This document shows, piece by piece, positions 54,448-64,000 of a stretch of 64,000 nucleotides of DNA; position 1 is the stretch's first letter; the number at the start of each line of letters is the position of its first letter. The notes below the pieces were generated by a model. That model searched no databases and was not told the origin of the DNA. It saw nothing but the letters and a program-made list of their open reading frames with translations. The translations under genes and the position numbers were made by a program. Origin of the DNA: Minisyncoccota bacterium (GTDB lineage: Bacteria > Patescibacteriota > Minisyncoccia > Phycocordibacterales > GWA1-40-21); the NCBI GenBank assembly GCA_041664585.1, contig JBAYKL010000002.1, forward strand, positions 88,328 through 152,327, written 5' to 3'.

Positions 54448-56580
54448 TTACTTAATAGTTCCTGCCCAAATTCCATCTATCACCTCTTTACCCTGTGCTT
54501 CAAATTCTGGGGCTATTTTCATAGCTTTTTGTACCTCTGCAACCGCAAAGCTTTTGCTATTCACCTTCAAAAAATCAGCGGCGTTTAATAAATAAGCCCT
54601 TATAACCCTTTCGTTGGTGGTAGTTCCTCCCAAGAGCTCCTTCGCTTTCTTCTCTTCGCCATTTCTAATTAACGCAGCCACGTAGTTCATCTTGCCTTCT
54701 TCATAAACTGGAACTAAATCATACGCTCTTTTTGCAATCCCAAGTGCTTCTGTTTTCTGTCCTAGACTAGATAGGCAGTTTGTAAGTTCGATAAGCATTG
54801 ATATTTTTTTAGGAGAAAGCTCAACGGCTTTTTCTAAATAAGGTAAAGCCAACTCAAACTGCTGCATGTTACTTAAGAATCCGCCAACAAAGAATTGATA
54901 CCTCGCGTTGTCTGGTGTTTCATTTATTTGTTTTTCTGCCTGAATTGAAGCTAGATTTATAAAATCTTGTTTAGTCTCCATATCCACACCATCAAGAGAA
55001 ACGACTCTTGGAGTAATATTCAAAAGTTGTTCCAATATTTCGGAATTCGCCATTGAGTTATACGAGATAGCTTTTTGGAAATATTCTAGATTTTTATTAA
55101 CCCCACCACTTTGCTGACCCATTGCCTTTATTAAATTCAAATTTGCAGCTATTGGTTTACAGTTAAAATACCAAACAGACATACCAAGAGTAACTAATAA
55201 AATAGGTAGAACAACATAGTTTGCTAAATCATTACTTATTCCCATTCTCTCTCCTTCTTTTAGTTTTTGAGGAATTTCAATTTCTTCTGTGTCACTTGCA
55301 TGCAAATAAGCAAGTACTATAAAGAATAAAATATAACTAGAAAGATTATCGAATACAAAAAGATTCTGGAAAAAATATCCGGCAAGCACACCGACAAGAA
55401 GAGCTGAATCTATAATACCTAGTTTATTTCTTCTTTTCCAAATAAGCCAAAGCGCTGCTACAAAAATCCCAAGATATGATACAAGACCAAGCGTTCCACC
55501 GGCTATCAAAATATCTAAAGGTGTATTGTGTGCCCTATCAAACCACTGCTCCTGATCATACATTCTTTCATCATAGTATTTATTAAACACATAATTAAAA
55601 CCTTCTTGTCCCCAACCCAAAATAGGTTTCTCTTTAGCTCCTTGAATAGCCATACTCCATACATATTGTCTTGCCACTCCTTGTCCAGCTCTTATGTCCT
55701 TCCAAGAAAGAGAAGCAAATCTGCTAAGCGTTTTGTTTTCTTTTGCAAATTGAGTATCTCTGATGGCAAAAAATCCTCCTATCAAAATCACAATAGTGAC
55801 AAGACCACCTATAGCGACATTTCTCATTAGCTTATTTTTCTTTTCAAAGATTGCAATAATTACAGAAGAAACGATTAAACCACCAATAAGCCCGAGGATT
55901 ACTCCCCTAGTAGATGTCATCCAAATACCCCAAACACAAAGTGCGGCCAAAATCGAATAGATATAAGTTAGAGAATTTTTAAAAATCCTCTTAACCTGTC
56001 TTGATCCCTCTGATTTTATAATTACATCTTTGTAGAGCAAAATTAAAGCAAAGAAAAAGTTAAAGAGAAAATAAATAGCAACATATATTGGATTACCGAG
56101 GGATACAGAAGATCTATCTGGATGGCTTTTTATCCACTCCTGATATACTAAGGTTGCCATAGCAACGCTTGATACGACAGATGAACGGAAGAACCAAAGC
56201 CAAATCTTTTCAGTCTTCATTACAGATCCTGCAACAACCAAGAACATTAATAGGTGTATAAGTGTGATCCAACCATCCATTCTTTCAAAGTTGCTCCAAA
56301 AAGCTTTCGCTGGATCAATAGAGAAAATATTGGCCACAGCCATTATCAAAACAAACAATGCTACAGACACGGCCACCCAAGAAAATTTGGGTCTGTATTT
56401 TTTGTCTATAAAAGCAAGATATGCCCAAACAGCAAAAATAATTTCGACAATTATTCTAAATGCAAAGTTTTTACCCGATATATAAGGGAAGAACATACTA
56501 TTAGCAACATAGAACGGTATTAATAGAAGCGCCCATATTCCTACAAAAATCTTCCACCTAGCTATATTTTTTATATCCAT
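54448..56580 (-). CDS. O-antigen-ligase-like (Wzy_C) polytopic membrane protein with a C-terminal TPR domain
   Basis: About 12 TM helices. The Wzy_C signature loop is ...RAHNTPLDILIAGGTLGL. The C-terminal roughly 250 aa are TPR-like repeats (...AISYNSMANSEILEQLL..., ...LALPYLEKAVELSPKK...). Confidence 0.75.
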   Translation of the reverse strand: MDIKNIARWKIFVGIWALLLIPFYVANSMFFPYISGKNFAFRIIVEIIFAVWAYLAFIDKKYRPKFSWVAVSVALFVLIMAVANIFSIDPAKAFWSNFERMDGWITLIHLLMFLVVAGSVMKTEKIWLWFFRSSVVSSVAMATLVYQEWIKSHPDRSSVSLGNPIYVAIYFLFNFFFALILLYKDVIIKSEGSRQVKRIFKNSLTYIYSILAALCVWGIWMTSTRGVILGLIGGLIVSSVIIAIFEKKNKLMRNVAIGGLVTIVILIGGFFAIRDTQFAKENKTLSRFASLSWKDIRAGQGVARQYVWSMAIQGAKEKPILGWGQEGFNYVFNKYYDERMYDQEQWFDRAHNTPLDILIAGGTLGLVSYLGIFVAALWLIWKRRNKLGIIDSALLVGVLAGYFFQNLFVFDNLSSYILFFIVLAYLHASDTEEIEIPQKLKEGERMGISNDLANYVVLPILLVTLGMSVWYFNCKPIAANLNLIKAMGQQSGGVNKNLEYFQKAISYNSMANSEILEQLLNITPRVVSLDGVDMETKQDFINLASIQAEKQINETPDNARYQFFVGGFLSNMQQFELALPYLEKAVELSPKKISMLIELTNCLSSLGQKTEALGIAKRAYDLVPVYEEGKMNYVAALIRNGEEKKAKELLGGTTTNERVIRAYLLNAADFLKVNSKSFAVAEVQKAMKIAPEFEAQGKEVIDGIWAGTIK

Positions 56581-56657
56581 AATGTTGAATATTATATCAC
56601 ACAGTTTATTTTTATATATCTGGTTTTTTATATAAATAAATAGTACAATTCATACCT

Positions 56658-57695
56658 ATGAAAAAAGCTTTAATAACTGGTATTACAGGTCAGGACGGCT
56701 CTTATCTAGCCGAATTTTTATTAGAAAAAGGATACGAAGTACATGGAATAATAAGAAGAAGCTCTAGCTTTAATACATCTAGAATAGACCACTTATATAA
56801 AGATCCTCATATAAATAATGTAAAACTCTTCTTACACTTTGGTGATTTGTCAGACTCAAGTAACATCTCTAGGCTACTAGAGAAGATAAAACCAGATGAA
56901 ATCTATAATCTTGGAGCACAAAGCCACGTAAAGGTCAGTTTTGATATGCCTGAATATACTGCAGATGTTGTAGGCCTTGGTACGCTCAGGATTTTAGATG
57001 CCATAAGAGAGTCTGGTATAAAAACAAAATTTTACCAAGCATCGTCTTCTGAAATGTTTGGAAAGGTTCAAGAGATTCCACAAAAAGAAACTACGCCATT
57101 CCATCCACGCTCCCCCTATGGTTGTGCAAAAGTATTTGGATACTGGATCACAAAAAATTACAGAGAAAGTTATAATATCTTTGCATGCAATGGAATATTA
57201 TTTAATCACGAAAGTCCAAGAAGAGGCTCAACCTTTGTAACCAAAAAAATAACAGAGGCTCTTGTTAAGATTAAGTTTGGTTTGCAAGACAAACTATATC
57301 TAGGAAATCTTGATGCAAAAAGAGACTGGGGATATGCCAAAGACTATGTAGAGGGTATGTGGCTCATGTTGCAAGCTAAAAAACCAGATGACTATATACT
57401 AGCAACTGGAGAAACCTATAAGGTTAGAGAATTTGTGGAAGAATCTGCAAAAATATTAGGAATGAAATTAAAATGGACCGGAAAAGGACTAAAAGAAAAA
57501 GCAGTAGATACAAAAACAGGTAAGACAATAATCGAGGTGGATCCAAAATATTTTAGACCAGCAGAAGTAGAGCTTCTCATAGGTGACCCGACAAAAGCAA
57601 AGAAGGTGTTAAAATGGAAACCAAAAACTTCTTTTAAAGAATTGGTTAGACTAATGGTAGAAGAAGATTTAAAAAACTATGAATCTAAAAGATAA
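56658..57695 (+). CDS. gmd: GDP-mannose 4,6-dehydratase
   Basis: [47 protein letters not shown] is the near-invariant Gmd N-terminus. It also has YGCAKVF (the Y/K catalytic motif). Confidence 0.92.
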
Positions 57696-62688: not shown

Positions 62689-63624
62689 ATGAAAACACCA
62701 ATACTTTTTATAATATTCAACCGACCAGGAACAACAAAGGTGGTCTTTGAAGCTATCCGCCAAGCAAAACCATCTAAACTTTTTATTGCAGCAGATGGAC
62801 CAAGAAAAAATAAACCTGGCGAAAAAGAACTTTGTGAAAAAACAAGGAAAATAACAGAAAAAATAGATTGGGAATGTGAAGTTAAAACTTTATTTAGAGA
62901 AGAAAACCTTGGATGTGGAAAGGCTGTGAGTGGAGCAATCAGTTGGTTTTTTGAAAATGTTGAGGAAGGAATAATCCTAGAAGATGACTGCCTACCCCAT
63001 CCATCTTTCTTTAGATTTTGTGAGGAATTATTAGAACGCTACCGTTTTGATGACAAAGTCTTTATGATTTCTGGAAATAATTTCTTGCCAAAAAGCTTGA
63101 GGCCAAAAGGAAGCTACTACTTTTCACAATTACCACACATCTGGGGTTGGGCCACGTGGAAACGGGCCTGGCAAAAATATGATTTTGATATTAAAGATTT
63201 ACCAGATTTTATAAAAAACAAAGAGATCGAAAAAAAATGGGTTGATAAAAGTATACAAAATTATTGGTTAGAAAACTTCAAAGAAGTTTTCTATCACAAT
63301 CTAGACACTTGGGATTATCAGCTAGTTTATAACATGTGGAAAAATAAGAGTATTTCCATAGCACCAAATGTAAACCTAGTATCAAACATTGGTTTCGGCA
63401 CCAGTGGAACACACACGCTAAACAAAAACGATCCTTCTGCAAATTTGCCATCAGAGGAAATTAGCTTCCCTATCATATTAAATAACCCTAGCACATTAGA
63501 AATGTGTGATGACTATGAAAATAGACATATTCGTCATAAAAACTACCGTATTAAATTGATATTAAAAAAACTTGGTTTATTTAATACAGCAAAAAAATTA
63601 TACTTAGTAATGAATAAAGCATAA
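62689..63624 (+). CDS. GT-A-fold nucleotide-sugar transferase (HlpA-like family)
   Basis: ILFIIFNRPGTTKVVFEAI...LFIAADGPR...NLGCGKAV...IILEDDCLPHPSFFRFC matches the family that recurs in capsule and O-antigen loci, often annotated as hemolytic protein HlpA-like. Confidence 0.5.
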   Translation: MKTPILFIIFNRPGTTKVVFEAIRQAKPSKLFIAADGPRKNKPGEKELCEKTRKITEKIDWECEVKTLFREENLGCGKAVSGAISWFFENVEEGIILEDDCLPHPSFFRFCEELLERYRFDDKVFMISGNNFLPKSLRPKGSYYFSQLPHIWGWATWKRAWQKYDFDIKDLPDFIKNKEIEKKWVDKSIQNYWLENFKEVFYHNLDTWDYQLVYNMWKNKSISIAPNVNLVSNIGFGTSGTHTLNKNDPSANLPSEEISFPIILNNPSTLEMCDDYENRHIRHKNYRIKLILKKLGLFNTAKKLYLVMNKA

Positions 63625-63691
63625 TACGACAAAGGGATTACAAAATCTGCTAAGAAATTAATTGAATTTATAAGCATAACAAAATAACAAT

Positions 63692-64000
63692 ATGAAAATT
63701 AAAAAGATACTACGTGGAATCAAAAACAGAATAATCAAGTACAAAACTAAAATAACAACTAAGCCAATATGGATTTACATAAAAGATGGGCCGCTAAAAG
63801 ACGGATTTATACTTATAAATAAAAATCTGCATGATGGATGGTCTAAAATGGAAAATGGAACATACGATAAATTTATATATGATTTCTTATCAAGCAATAA
63901 TATTCTAGGAAGTACCGTGTGGGATGTTGGCGCCCACTTTGGATATCATGCATTATCTTTTGCCAAATTGGTAGGATCAAATGGAAGAGTTGTAACTTTT
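63692..64000 (+). CDS. FkbM-family methyltransferase, 3' end truncated by the window
   Basis: ...VWDVGAHFGYHALSFAKLVGSNGRVVTF matches the FkbM motif (D.GAN.G..S..FA). The ORF is open to the window end. Confidence 0.55.
   Translation, partial: MKIKKILRGIKNRIIKYKTKITTKPIWIYIKDGPLKDGFILINKNLHDGWSKMENGTYDKFIYDFLSSNNILGSTVWDVGAHFGYHALSFAKLVGSNGRVVTF

Follow-up and report, generated by a model that had tools for sequence, protein, structure and literature searches.

The locus at the end of the window (the whole stretch of 64,000 nucleotides that was analysed) raises the question of what a protein of the WaaL superfamily can attach a glycan to in an ultra-small bacterium of the Paceibacterota (CPR), as there is no LPS in these bacteria. 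Approximately 83 kb of the contig showed no genes for LPS or an outer membrane, which bears out the first-pass annotation, made from the window, that there was no sign of an outer membrane. The gene positions given there were also all recovered, and the strong profile matches identify the open reading frames as real genes and not chance ORFs (Table 1). The parts of this system are of known kinds, although the system itself has apparently not been studied in the Paceibacterota; it is a real system of an ordinary kind in an unstudied lineage. Our tentative answer is that the protein is an en-bloc ligase, supplied with an oligosaccharide by a divergent operon of 12 genes, and that one or more surface proteins are its most likely acceptor.

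Table 1. Features of the ligase-like gene, its downstream neighbours and the divergent glycan operon (window positions)
Feature	Position	Strand	Remarks
secA	50328..52793	-	conserved downstream neighbour, synteny anchor
murB	53180..54184	-	conserved downstream neighbour, synteny anchor
Terminator-like hairpin between ligase stop codon and murB	54346..54363	-	consensus match only
WaaL-superfamily ligase-like protein, C-terminal TPR domain	54448..56580	-	710 aa; conserved Paceibacteria core gene
All-helical TPR domain, residues 474-710	54451..55161	-	predicted extracytoplasmic
Extra 13th membrane helix, residues 450-473	55162..55233	-	predicted to return the chain across the membrane
Large helical loop TM9-TM10, residues 274-352	55525..55761	-	predicted extracytoplasmic; carries R304, E344, D348, R349, H351
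WaaL-like 12-helix membrane core, residues 1-431	55288..56580	-	
A+T-rich intergenic region, 77 bp	56581..56657	.	common to ligase gene and divergent glycan operon
gmd, GDP-mannose 4,6-dehydratase	56658..57695	+	TIGR01472, 591 bits, cutoff 415
fcl-like GDP-4-keto-6-deoxymannose epimerase/reductase	57679..58614	+	NF047922 best model, full length, 295 bits, below 500-bit equivalog cutoff
galE, UDP-hexose 4-epimerase	58663..59706	+	TIGR01179, 417 bits, cutoff 262
Wzx-type (MOP family) flippase	59699..61003	+	Polysacc_synt, 111 bits; 11 hydrophobic segments
Class-I SAM-dependent methyltransferase	61011..61739	+	Methyltransf_11, Methyltransf_23
GT8 retaining glycosyltransferase	61745..62686	+	Glyco_transf_8, 177 bits
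Putative GT-A glycosyltransferase	62689..63624	+	311 aa; uncurated family; NCBI names of homologues
FkbM-family methyltransferase, 5' part	63692..64000	+	268 aa on full contig

The ligase-like protein

The gene had been described as encoding a 12-TM Wzy_C/WaaL-like protein with a TPR domain. Its domains are as described, since Pfam Wzy_C was matched at residues 211-370 with 69 bits (cutoff 31.7) and TPR families at the C-terminus, but the membrane helices number 13 and not 12. No other families, and no PglL-specific model, were matched in the Pfam scan (E<=0.01). Structure comparison superposed the membrane core on 362 of 403 WaaL residues, and when only the membrane part was used as a profile, WaaL 7TPG was the only PDB match (E 2.7e-6). 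Moreover, the ligase profile aligns with E. coli WaaL over 301 columns and keeps the Arg/Arg/His positions: R225 aligns with R191 of CmWaaL and R215 of E. coli WaaL, R304 with R265 and R288, and H351 with H313 and H338, respectively. These three residues are invariant across 80 species and presumably have the roles known for their WaaL counterparts. The membrane core has a mean identity of 63% (45 homologues); conservation peaks in the TM9-TM10 loop (69%), whose residues R304, E344, D348, R349 and H351 show no variation in the 80 species.

Membrane topology was predicted from the sequence and from the AlphaFold model, in which a helix at residues 450-487 comes after a low-confidence cytoplasmic linker. 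Lys and Arg residues number 17 in the short 'inside' loops versus 3 in the short 'outside' loops, and this bias, together with the 13 helices, places the catalytic loop and the TPR domain both outside in the predicted topology. The TPR domain was matched by TPR_19, TPR_CcmH_CycH and other Pfam TPR models and by TPR structures in PDB searches. It has a mean identity of 46%; conservation reaches 90% or more in 28 columns, among them E514, R516, E517, Q551, R560, K592, K617, Y620 and Y633. The conservation of such polar residues suggests a specific macromolecular partner. TPR domains also serve as polysaccharide scaffolds and therefore an outward TPR domain is no proof of a protein acceptor.

The hairpin between the ligase gene and murB has 7 pairs, 6 of them G-C, with a T-rich tail after it, and suggests that the ligase gene has a transcript of its own. 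In the intergenic region shared with the operon, sigma-70-like promoter matches were not above shuffled expectation.

The divergent glycan operon

Eight co-directional genes running past the window had been noted; all eight are present and the run does continue, but it totals 12 genes, in the order gmd, fcl-like, galE, wzx, class-I methyltransferase, GT8, unclassified GT-A, FkbM methyltransferase, GT4, GT11, GT2 and GT2. It ends at a hairpin about 4.2 kb beyond the window end (position x of locus L001 is window position x+52688, and the two sequences are identical where they overlap). The flippase is the sole membrane protein encoded in it. The fcl-like product is a probable GDP-L-fucose synthase, and the same operon holds the GT11 gene, of a fucosyltransferase family. 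GT8 has weak similarity to an LPS alpha-1,3-galactosyltransferase (112 bits, below cutoff). The 311-aa protein was not matched by sequence in Pfam, NCBIfam or the PDB; as its homologues, whose family has at least 8000 members, bear the NCBI name 'nucleotide-diphospho-sugar transferase', its assignment to GT-A is plausible.

The operon had been taken for a complete en-bloc pathway, which does not hold: none of the 12 genes encodes an initiating phosphoglycosyltransferase, nor was one found in the approximately 83 kb of contig examined, and the operon contains no GDP-mannose supply genes. It is also without Wzy, Wzz or a second ligase, so that extension of the contig did not reveal the canonical Wzy/Wzz set with a separate WaaL which had been named beforehand as a refutation. 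The absence of a separate polymerase would be equally expected if this protein were itself the polymerase. Elsewhere in the window, genes for a sortase and for LamG and CARDB proteins are present as reported; the suggested link to sortase substrates is without support, no LPXTG signal being found in the proteins adjoining the sortase.

Conservation of the locus

The sample comprised 80 species-representative genomes, in which the upstream side was scored in 63 species and the downstream side in 54; the loci are phylogenetically related and the synteny counts are therefore not independent events. Downstream, on the same strand, secA was found in 49/54 species loci and murB in 38/54. The ligase gene belongs to the conserved core, linked to murB-secA, and not to the glycan island. 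At least one glycan-type gene lies within 10 kb in 50 of the 63 upstream regions, versus 7 of the 54 downstream, and at least two glycan categories in 32/63 versus 0/54. The 10 kb upstream contain Wzx (22/63), sugar-nucleotide SDR enzymes (27/63), GT4 (20/63) and FkbM (12/63). The proposed tie of the ligase gene to glycan synthesis is thus upheld by Wzx, sugar-nucleotide, glycosyltransferase and methyltransferase genes upstream in most of the 63 species, but not downstream. The first two upstream ORFs of other species include NeuB, cytidylyltransferases and WavE, and the sugars therefore differ between lineages. The system is most likely a surface decoration with lineage-specific sugars.

Proposed mechanism and alternatives

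We propose that Paceibacteria keep the ligase as a core envelope gene heading the murB-secA array. The operon would make GDP-L-fucose and UDP-Gal (or UDP-GalNAc), and its six soluble glycosyltransferases and two methyltransferases would assemble, on a polyprenyl-diphosphate carrier, a short oligosaccharide that is methylated and fucosylated, the chain being started by a phosphoglycosyltransferase encoded elsewhere; this carrier chemistry is assumed, because neither the operon nor the examined part of the contig encodes the initiating transferase. Wzx would flip the product across the membrane to its outer side, where the ligase would bind the lipid-diphosphate donor via R225 and R304 and use H351, in the outward loop, to transfer the whole oligosaccharide without polymerisation, while the outward-facing TPR domain would hold a conserved extracytoplasmic acceptor. 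As these bacteria have no LPS, this would most likely be one or more surface proteins, such as pilins or other envelope proteins, and by analogy a protein acceptor like those of PglL and WsfB is plausible.

The same en-bloc ligase could instead transfer the Wzx-flipped oligosaccharide to a membrane glycolipid, peptidoglycan or another wall polymer, giving a lipoglycan or a wall-linked glycan. We consider this possible but rather unlikely. The only solved structural relative, WaaL, is a lipid-A-core ligase and transfers to lipid, and a PglL-specific domain is absent by Pfam; both points speak against a protein acceptor. In addition, TacL of Streptococcus pneumoniae, a bacterium without an outer membrane, is a Wzy_C-family lipoteichoic-acid ligase that transfers a lipid-linked polymer to a glycolipid acceptor. 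The frequent adjacency of murB, a peptidoglycan-precursor gene, points the same way, but MurB is cytoplasmic and the terminator-like hairpin splits its gene from that of the ligase, so the adjacency may be positional only. Moreover, WaaL has no large outward TPR domain, nor to our knowledge has TacL, whereas a TPR domain is described for both WsfB and PglL, and the conserved polar TPR residues suggest a specific macromolecular partner.

That the protein is a Wzy-type polymerase of Wzx-flipped repeats, with the polymer attached by another enzyme or by none, seems improbable. Pfam Wzy_C spans polymerases as well as ligases, Wzx is in the operon with no other candidate polymerase, and a divergent Wzx lies within 2.5 kb of the ligase gene in 18 loci, a recurring Wzx/Wzy_C pair. 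However, polymerases are repeat-unit-specific and usually vary with their cluster, whereas this protein keeps 35-76% identity among Paceibacteria as the island changes from fucose genes here to NeuB and cytidylyltransferase genes elsewhere; at one locus (L025) Wzx is 72% identical to the Wzx here and the ligase only 37%. No Wzz or PCP co-polymerase is encoded in the operon, and most other Wzx islands also have neither Wzz nor a second polytopic protein. Profile comparison with WzyE gave no similarity, the alignment with E. coli WaaL keeps the ligase residues, and a set of six glycosyltransferases is more in keeping with one long unit than with a short repeat. We infer that an enzyme which is conserved while the sugar genes next to it change is more readily explained as a donor-tolerant ligase than as a polymerase. 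PglL-type enzymes tolerate many donors, which agrees with such an arrangement.

It is very improbable that the gene and the operon are chance neighbours at a hot spot for horizontally acquired islands: the island looks inserted (the DUF87/TraD-like ATPase at the far end of the operon lies directly upstream of the ligase gene in other species), its G+C is lower (31.8% versus 34.1% in the window; GT8 26.9%) and surface proteins, a PAPS-synthesis gene or an ABC exporter replace it in some species, but the upstream content is overwhelmingly glycan machinery, Wzx, which supplies the substrate of WaaL-type ligases, is encoded divergently right next to the ligase gene (within 150 bp) in 10 loci, and the flipped product needs a consuming enzyme, for which the contig examined offers no other candidate.

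Comparison with known systems

Sequence identity with WaaL (Cupriavidus metallidurans, PDB 7TPG/7TPJ; E. coli K-12) is only 14%. In its predicted topology the protein described here differs from WaaL by the 13th helix and the 237-residue outward TPR domain, and it has strongly conserved extra motifs in outward loops, FPYI(T/S)GKNF, SNFERM(D/E)G and FVFDN. Because the host lacks both an outer membrane and lipid A-core, the acceptor must differ from that of WaaL. TacL is likewise a WaaL-like ligase with a non-LPS acceptor in a host without LPS, but it uses a glycolipid, and no teichoic-acid genes occur here. With the Wzy polymerases of O-antigen and ECA the protein has in common the wider superfamily and the dependence on Wzx; it differs from them in having no Wzz partner and in being conserved independently of cluster content.

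The combination of Wzy_C with a C-terminal TPR domain has been described for the predicted S-layer O-OTase WsfB of Paenibacillus alvei and for PglL of Neisseria (PMC2943079). Compared by these descriptions, the resemblance to PglL/O-OTase enzymes claimed in the first-pass annotation stands for the architecture, but the Pfam match is to the generic Wzy_C only. WsfB, like the protein described here, belongs to a host without an outer membrane; it is transcribed alone beside a glycan locus, as the hairpin suggests for the ligase gene here.

The operon resembles the general protein O-glycosylation clusters of Bacteroidetes (Tannerella forsythia and the Bacteroides lfg locus), in which sugar-nucleotide genes accompany wzx, methyltransferase genes and several glycosyltransferase genes. 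In Tannerella, variable wzx/glycosyltransferase/methyltransferase clusters encode a protein O-glycan that contains fucose, and the Bacteroidetes clusters make a branched, methylated, fucose-containing oligosaccharide whose core initiation genes are encoded elsewhere (PMC6120980). Those hosts are bounded by two membranes, and their transferase is described as not yet identified (PMC6120980), whereas the cluster described here has a candidate ligase as its immediate neighbour.

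Features of the Wzy_C-TPR protein

The ligase-like protein is 100% identical to an NCBI entry named 'O-antigen ligase family protein [Candidatus Paceibacterota bacterium]', encoded on a 169-kb metagenomic contig, and its Wzy_C score, its fold and its Arg/Arg/His residues place it in the WaaL superfamily. The Wzy_C match exceeds the Pfam gathering score and is followed by C-terminal TPR matches (see table). An AlphaFold model made with 45 homologues as input was confident (pLDDT 89, pTM 0.86) and has the WaaL fold: 12 core helices, TM9 and TM10 of which are joined by a large outward loop, precede a low-confidence linker (residues 432-449) and a 13th helix (450-487). 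When this model was compared with the PDB by Foldseek, the top rank was taken by the WaaL of Cupriavidus metallidurans (CmWaaL, 7TPG).

Searches of the PDB with the single sequence or with a full-length profile returned TPR proteins only and no WaaL, so that a profile restricted to the membrane part was needed to reach it. With this profile WaaL was the sole match (E 2.7e-6), and R225, R304 and H351 were aligned with R191, R265 and H313 of CmWaaL; in an hhalign comparison with the WaaL of E. coli, covering 301 columns, the same residues fell on R215, R288 and H338. These positions of the two WaaL proteins are functionally important. In the ligase-like protein the two arginines and the histidine are predicted to face the outer leaflet, as in WaaL, and they are among the residues invariant in an alignment of 80 species (K37, R42, N97, E99, R100, N163, R225, R304, W323, E344, W346, D348, H351, D356, F410 and D411). 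The short loops predicted to lie inside carry 17 Lys and Arg residues versus 3 on the short loops predicted to lie outside and, from this count and the helix layout of the model, an outward orientation is predicted for the TPR domain (474-710) as well as for the catalytic loop (274-352). Mean identity among the 45 homologues was 63% in the core, 69% in the outward loop and 46% in the TPR domain, in which a set of polar residues is conserved.

The glycan operon

All the genes listed in the first-pass annotation were recovered in place by ORF listing and translation. The products of gmd (TIGR01472, 591 bits) and galE (TIGR01179, 417 bits) scored above the respective cutoffs, and the fcl-like SDR enzyme had GDP-L-fucose synthase as its top model over the full length, at 295 bits, which is below the 500-bit equivalog cutoff. 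After galE the run continues with a Wzx/MOP flippase, a class-I SAM methyltransferase (MTase), a GT8 glycosyltransferase (GT), a 311-aa protein and the start of an FkbM MTase. The 311-aa protein matched no curated family and no PDB sequence; it is a member of a large uncurated family named 'nucleotide-diphospho-sugar transferase' by NCBI, a name that makes a GT-A enzyme plausible. On the 169-kb contig (L001), which is identical to the window across the overlap, the operon proceeds beyond the window with the FkbM MTase, a GT4, a GT11 that belongs to the fucosyltransferase family (35 bits, cutoff 23.9) and two GT2 genes.

The operon thus comprises 12 genes separated by gaps of -17 to 67 bp, and Wzx is the only one of their products with membrane segments. 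With Wzx, sugar-nucleotide genes and several GTs in one operon, it has the composition of a Wzx-dependent assembly cluster. It ends at an A/T-flanked hairpin located before a convergent DUF87/TraD-like ATPase gene. This perfect hairpin (CTCAAGATAT/ATATCTTGAG), with an A-run and a T-run as flanks, lies about 4.2 kb past the window end, between the last GT2 gene and the ATPase gene, and looks like a bidirectional terminator at the island boundary. A promoter scan gave no more matches than were obtained in shuffled sequence.

The pathway had been described as a complete en-bloc one, which it is not, as Wzy, Wzz, a second ligase and an initiating phosphoglycosyltransferase were found neither in the operon nor in the further ~70 kb of the contig that was covered. 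For an initiating transferase of the WbaP/PglC or WecA type, no Bac_transf or Glycos_transf_4 domain was present in the contig gene tables or in the Pfam scan of the window genes. The same extension of the cluster to its end revealed no canonical Wzy/Wzz system with a separate WaaL, the arrangement which would have spoken against the first reading.

Coordinates of the features discussed (window positions unless a contig or locus is named)
Feature	Position	Strand	Description
Ligase-like gene	54448-56580	-	710 aa; Pfam Wzy_C at residues 211-370, 69 bits (cutoff 31.7); C-terminal TPR matches
gmd	from 56658	+	first gene of the operon
Wzx	59699-61003	+	flippase of the operon
Hairpin	L001 15499-15545		operon end
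Wzx region of another species	L025 1-2384		beside a ligase gene
PAPS-synthesis gene	L072 8141-9964		upstream of a ligase gene
Sortase	24295-24909	-	
Secreted protein	23066-24193	-	375 aa; no family match
CARDB/PKD protein	24998-26314	+	
LamG protein	18870-20969	-	
Peptidase_C39-like gene	28515-29102		190 aa
Phenylalanyl-tRNA synthetase beta	29087-31459	-	790 aa
Membrane protein pair	32249-34653	-	513 aa and 289 aa
Flavocytochrome region	2102-3385; L088 9069-9425	+ (first)	L088, contig part preceding the window
OmpA-family protein	L088 18439-20001		520 aa

Comparison of the ligase locus among species

Clustered at 50% identity, the ligase family has 2439 representatives at E<=1e-30; relatives were detected in at least 525 species when one genome per species was scanned. 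The best 80 of these relatives all come from CPR bacteria of the Paceibacteria type (Kaiser-, Yonath-, Campbell-, Taylor-, Nomura- and Lloydbacteria). Downstream of the ligase gene and on the same strand, murB was found in 38 of 54 loci and secA in 49 of 54, and in the present contig the murB-secA array goes on with enolase, obg, gatB and ribosomal protein genes. The adjacency of murB may be only positional, since a terminator-like hairpin stands between it and the ligase gene.

The upstream side is of a different nature. Iterative HMM searches within 10 kb upstream, made for 63 loci, found Wzx in 22, sugar-nucleotide SDR enzymes in 27, GT4 in 20 and FkbM in 12, whereas on the downstream side, compared for 54 loci, Wzx, SDR enzymes and FkbM were each absent and GT4 occurred in 3. 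At least one glycan-type gene was present upstream in 50/63 loci against 7/54 downstream, and two or more glycan categories in 32/63 against 0/54; the loci are phylogenetically related and these counts are therefore descriptive, not a tally of independent events. A divergent Wzx gene lies within 2.5 kb of the ligase gene in 18 loci, and in 10 the distance is no more than 150 bp. In most Wzx islands a further polytopic protein fit to be a dedicated polymerase is lacking.

When the two ORFs nearest upstream were surveyed with Pfam, NeuB, cytidylyltransferases and WavE were found in other species, so that the sugars differ between lineages. The Wzx of locus L025 is 72% identical to the one described here whereas the adjacent ligases share only 37%. 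This indicates that the exchange of islands does not follow the ligase, and suggests that glycan-island genes pass horizontally between Paceibacteria that are distantly related. That a conserved ligase adjoins islands with differing sugar genes, together with the L025 values, also bears indirectly on whether its donor specificity is relaxed. The DUF87 ATPase, placed at the far end of the operon here, is the direct upstream neighbour of the ligase gene in some species, and the G+C content of the operon is 31.8% compared with 34.1% for the window; both observations fit an inserted island.

An MsbA/PglK-like ABC exporter directly upstream was considered as the flippase of loci lacking Wzx, but true ABC exporters occur in few loci only, and the recurrent neighbour of about 590 aa in locus L023, suspected of being one, had no Pfam match and was adjacent in one locus only. 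At the same upstream position L072 encodes a fused ATP-sulfurylase/APS-kinase, possibly providing PAPS for sulfated glycans. Four other loci (L045, L051, L057 and L082) have at this site genes for surface proteins 893-1241 aa long, which contain Lamin-tail, LamG or LCAT-like domains, and L058 has a comparably large ORF of 1099 aa. The products of these six loci are possible acceptors or alternative island cargo.

Other genes of the window and contig

The sortase, LamG and CARDB genes to which the first-pass annotation had drawn attention are indeed present elsewhere in the window. The sortase gene lies between the genes of the secreted protein and the CARDB/PKD protein, with that of the LamG protein nearby. 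These neighbours, examined as candidate acceptors, are rich in Ser and Thr (20-25%) and have no LPXTG-type C-terminal sorting signal.

The phenylalanyl-tRNA synthetase beta subunit shows a precomputed Pfam match to NLPC_P60, a cell-wall peptidase, beside the usual B3_4, B5 and FDX-ACB, and its gene adjoins the Peptidase_C39-like gene, which is an odd combination. The 513-aa membrane protein has a weak match to Glyco_trans_2_3 (26.7 bits, just below the cutoff), and its gene overlaps by 7 bp that of a 289-aa protein which matches no family and has a membrane anchor at its N-terminus; the two may form a polysaccharide system of the synthase type, distinct from the Wzx operon. A ferric-reductase-like membrane flavocytochrome has a cytochrome-b5 gene beside it, together with a DUF2127 gene; apart from these, the genome shows fermentative genes (phosphoketolase, acetate kinase and PPDK). 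Some 8-9.5 kb ahead of the window, VWA, AAA and TelA genes adjoin the gene of a protein with an OmpA-family domain, which is peptidoglycan-binding; an outer membrane is unexpected in this bacterium.

Function, acceptor and significance

The ligase-like protein is best filed as a lineage-wide Wzy_C-TPR ligase placed beside an ordinary Wzx-dependent glycan island. We infer that it is probably a ligase and not a polymerase from its conservation independent of cluster content, its WaaL-like residues and the lack of Wzz. A Wzy polymerase is unlikely, as the gene is kept with murB-secA while the cluster varies, the operon has no Wzz, and comparison of the profile with E. coli WzyE gave nothing. A SEDS peptidoglycan polymerase (RodA/FtsW), considered on account of the murB neighbour, is contradicted by the fold scores and by the lack of any SEDS Pfam match. 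The role of a true LPS ligase is also improbable: the ~83 kb of contig searched showed no genes for LPS or an outer membrane, and Patescibacteria are not known to synthesize LPS.

The combination of Wzy_C with a C-terminal TPR is a trait of O-oligosaccharyltransferases of the WsfB/PglL type, and the 710-aa protein has it. A scan at E<=0.01 gave Wzy_C and TPR families only and no PglL-specific Pfam model (PglL_A, Wzy_C_2), and the protein is no more than a candidate for the PglL type. The resemblance to PglL and O-oligosaccharyltransferases proposed initially is borne out by the architecture, described for both WsfB and PglL (PMC2943079), and not by the family models. WsfB is itself predicted to be an S-layer O-oligosaccharyltransferase, and its host has no outer membrane (PMC2943079). 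The presumed absence of LPS and this shared domain pair lead us to favour a protein as the acceptor, although a lipid or the cell wall is a serious alternative.

In the mechanism we propose, the operon would supply GDP-L-fucose and UDP-Gal (or UDP-GalNAc), and on a polyprenyl-diphosphate carrier, primed by an enzyme encoded elsewhere, six soluble GTs and two MTases would assemble one oligosaccharide. Wzx would then flip the carrier-linked oligosaccharide, and the conserved ligase would move it en bloc onto an outward acceptor, likewise conserved, to which the TPR domain binds. The usual view of CPR bacteria is that they live attached to other cells. More speculatively, surface glycoconjugation might extend throughout the Paceibacteria, one vertically inherited and donor-tolerant ligase with an outward TPR domain placing any oligosaccharide from an adjacent, horizontally exchanged island onto conserved surface proteins (pili or wall proteins), and the resulting lineage-specific glycan coats might govern host attachment and phage evasion in these ultra-small, host-dependent cells.

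The components are conventional, the databases already label the family as O-antigen-ligase family protein, and the finding will not surprise a specialist. Nevertheless, no paper describing this ligase family in CPR bacteria was found in a literature search, and to our knowledge almost nothing is known of their surface chemistry. One conserved enzyme with a hypervariable sugar island as its neighbour offers a concrete entry to CPR surface glycobiology, and in metagenomes its locus can serve as a marker of how glycans vary from lineage to lineage. Should the acceptor prove to be a protein, the enzyme would be an O-oligosaccharyltransferase both compact and donor-tolerant, which might be useful in glyco-engineering. 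The operon described here is similar in make-up to the variable clusters for protein O-glycosylation in Tannerella and Bacteroides (PMC6120980).
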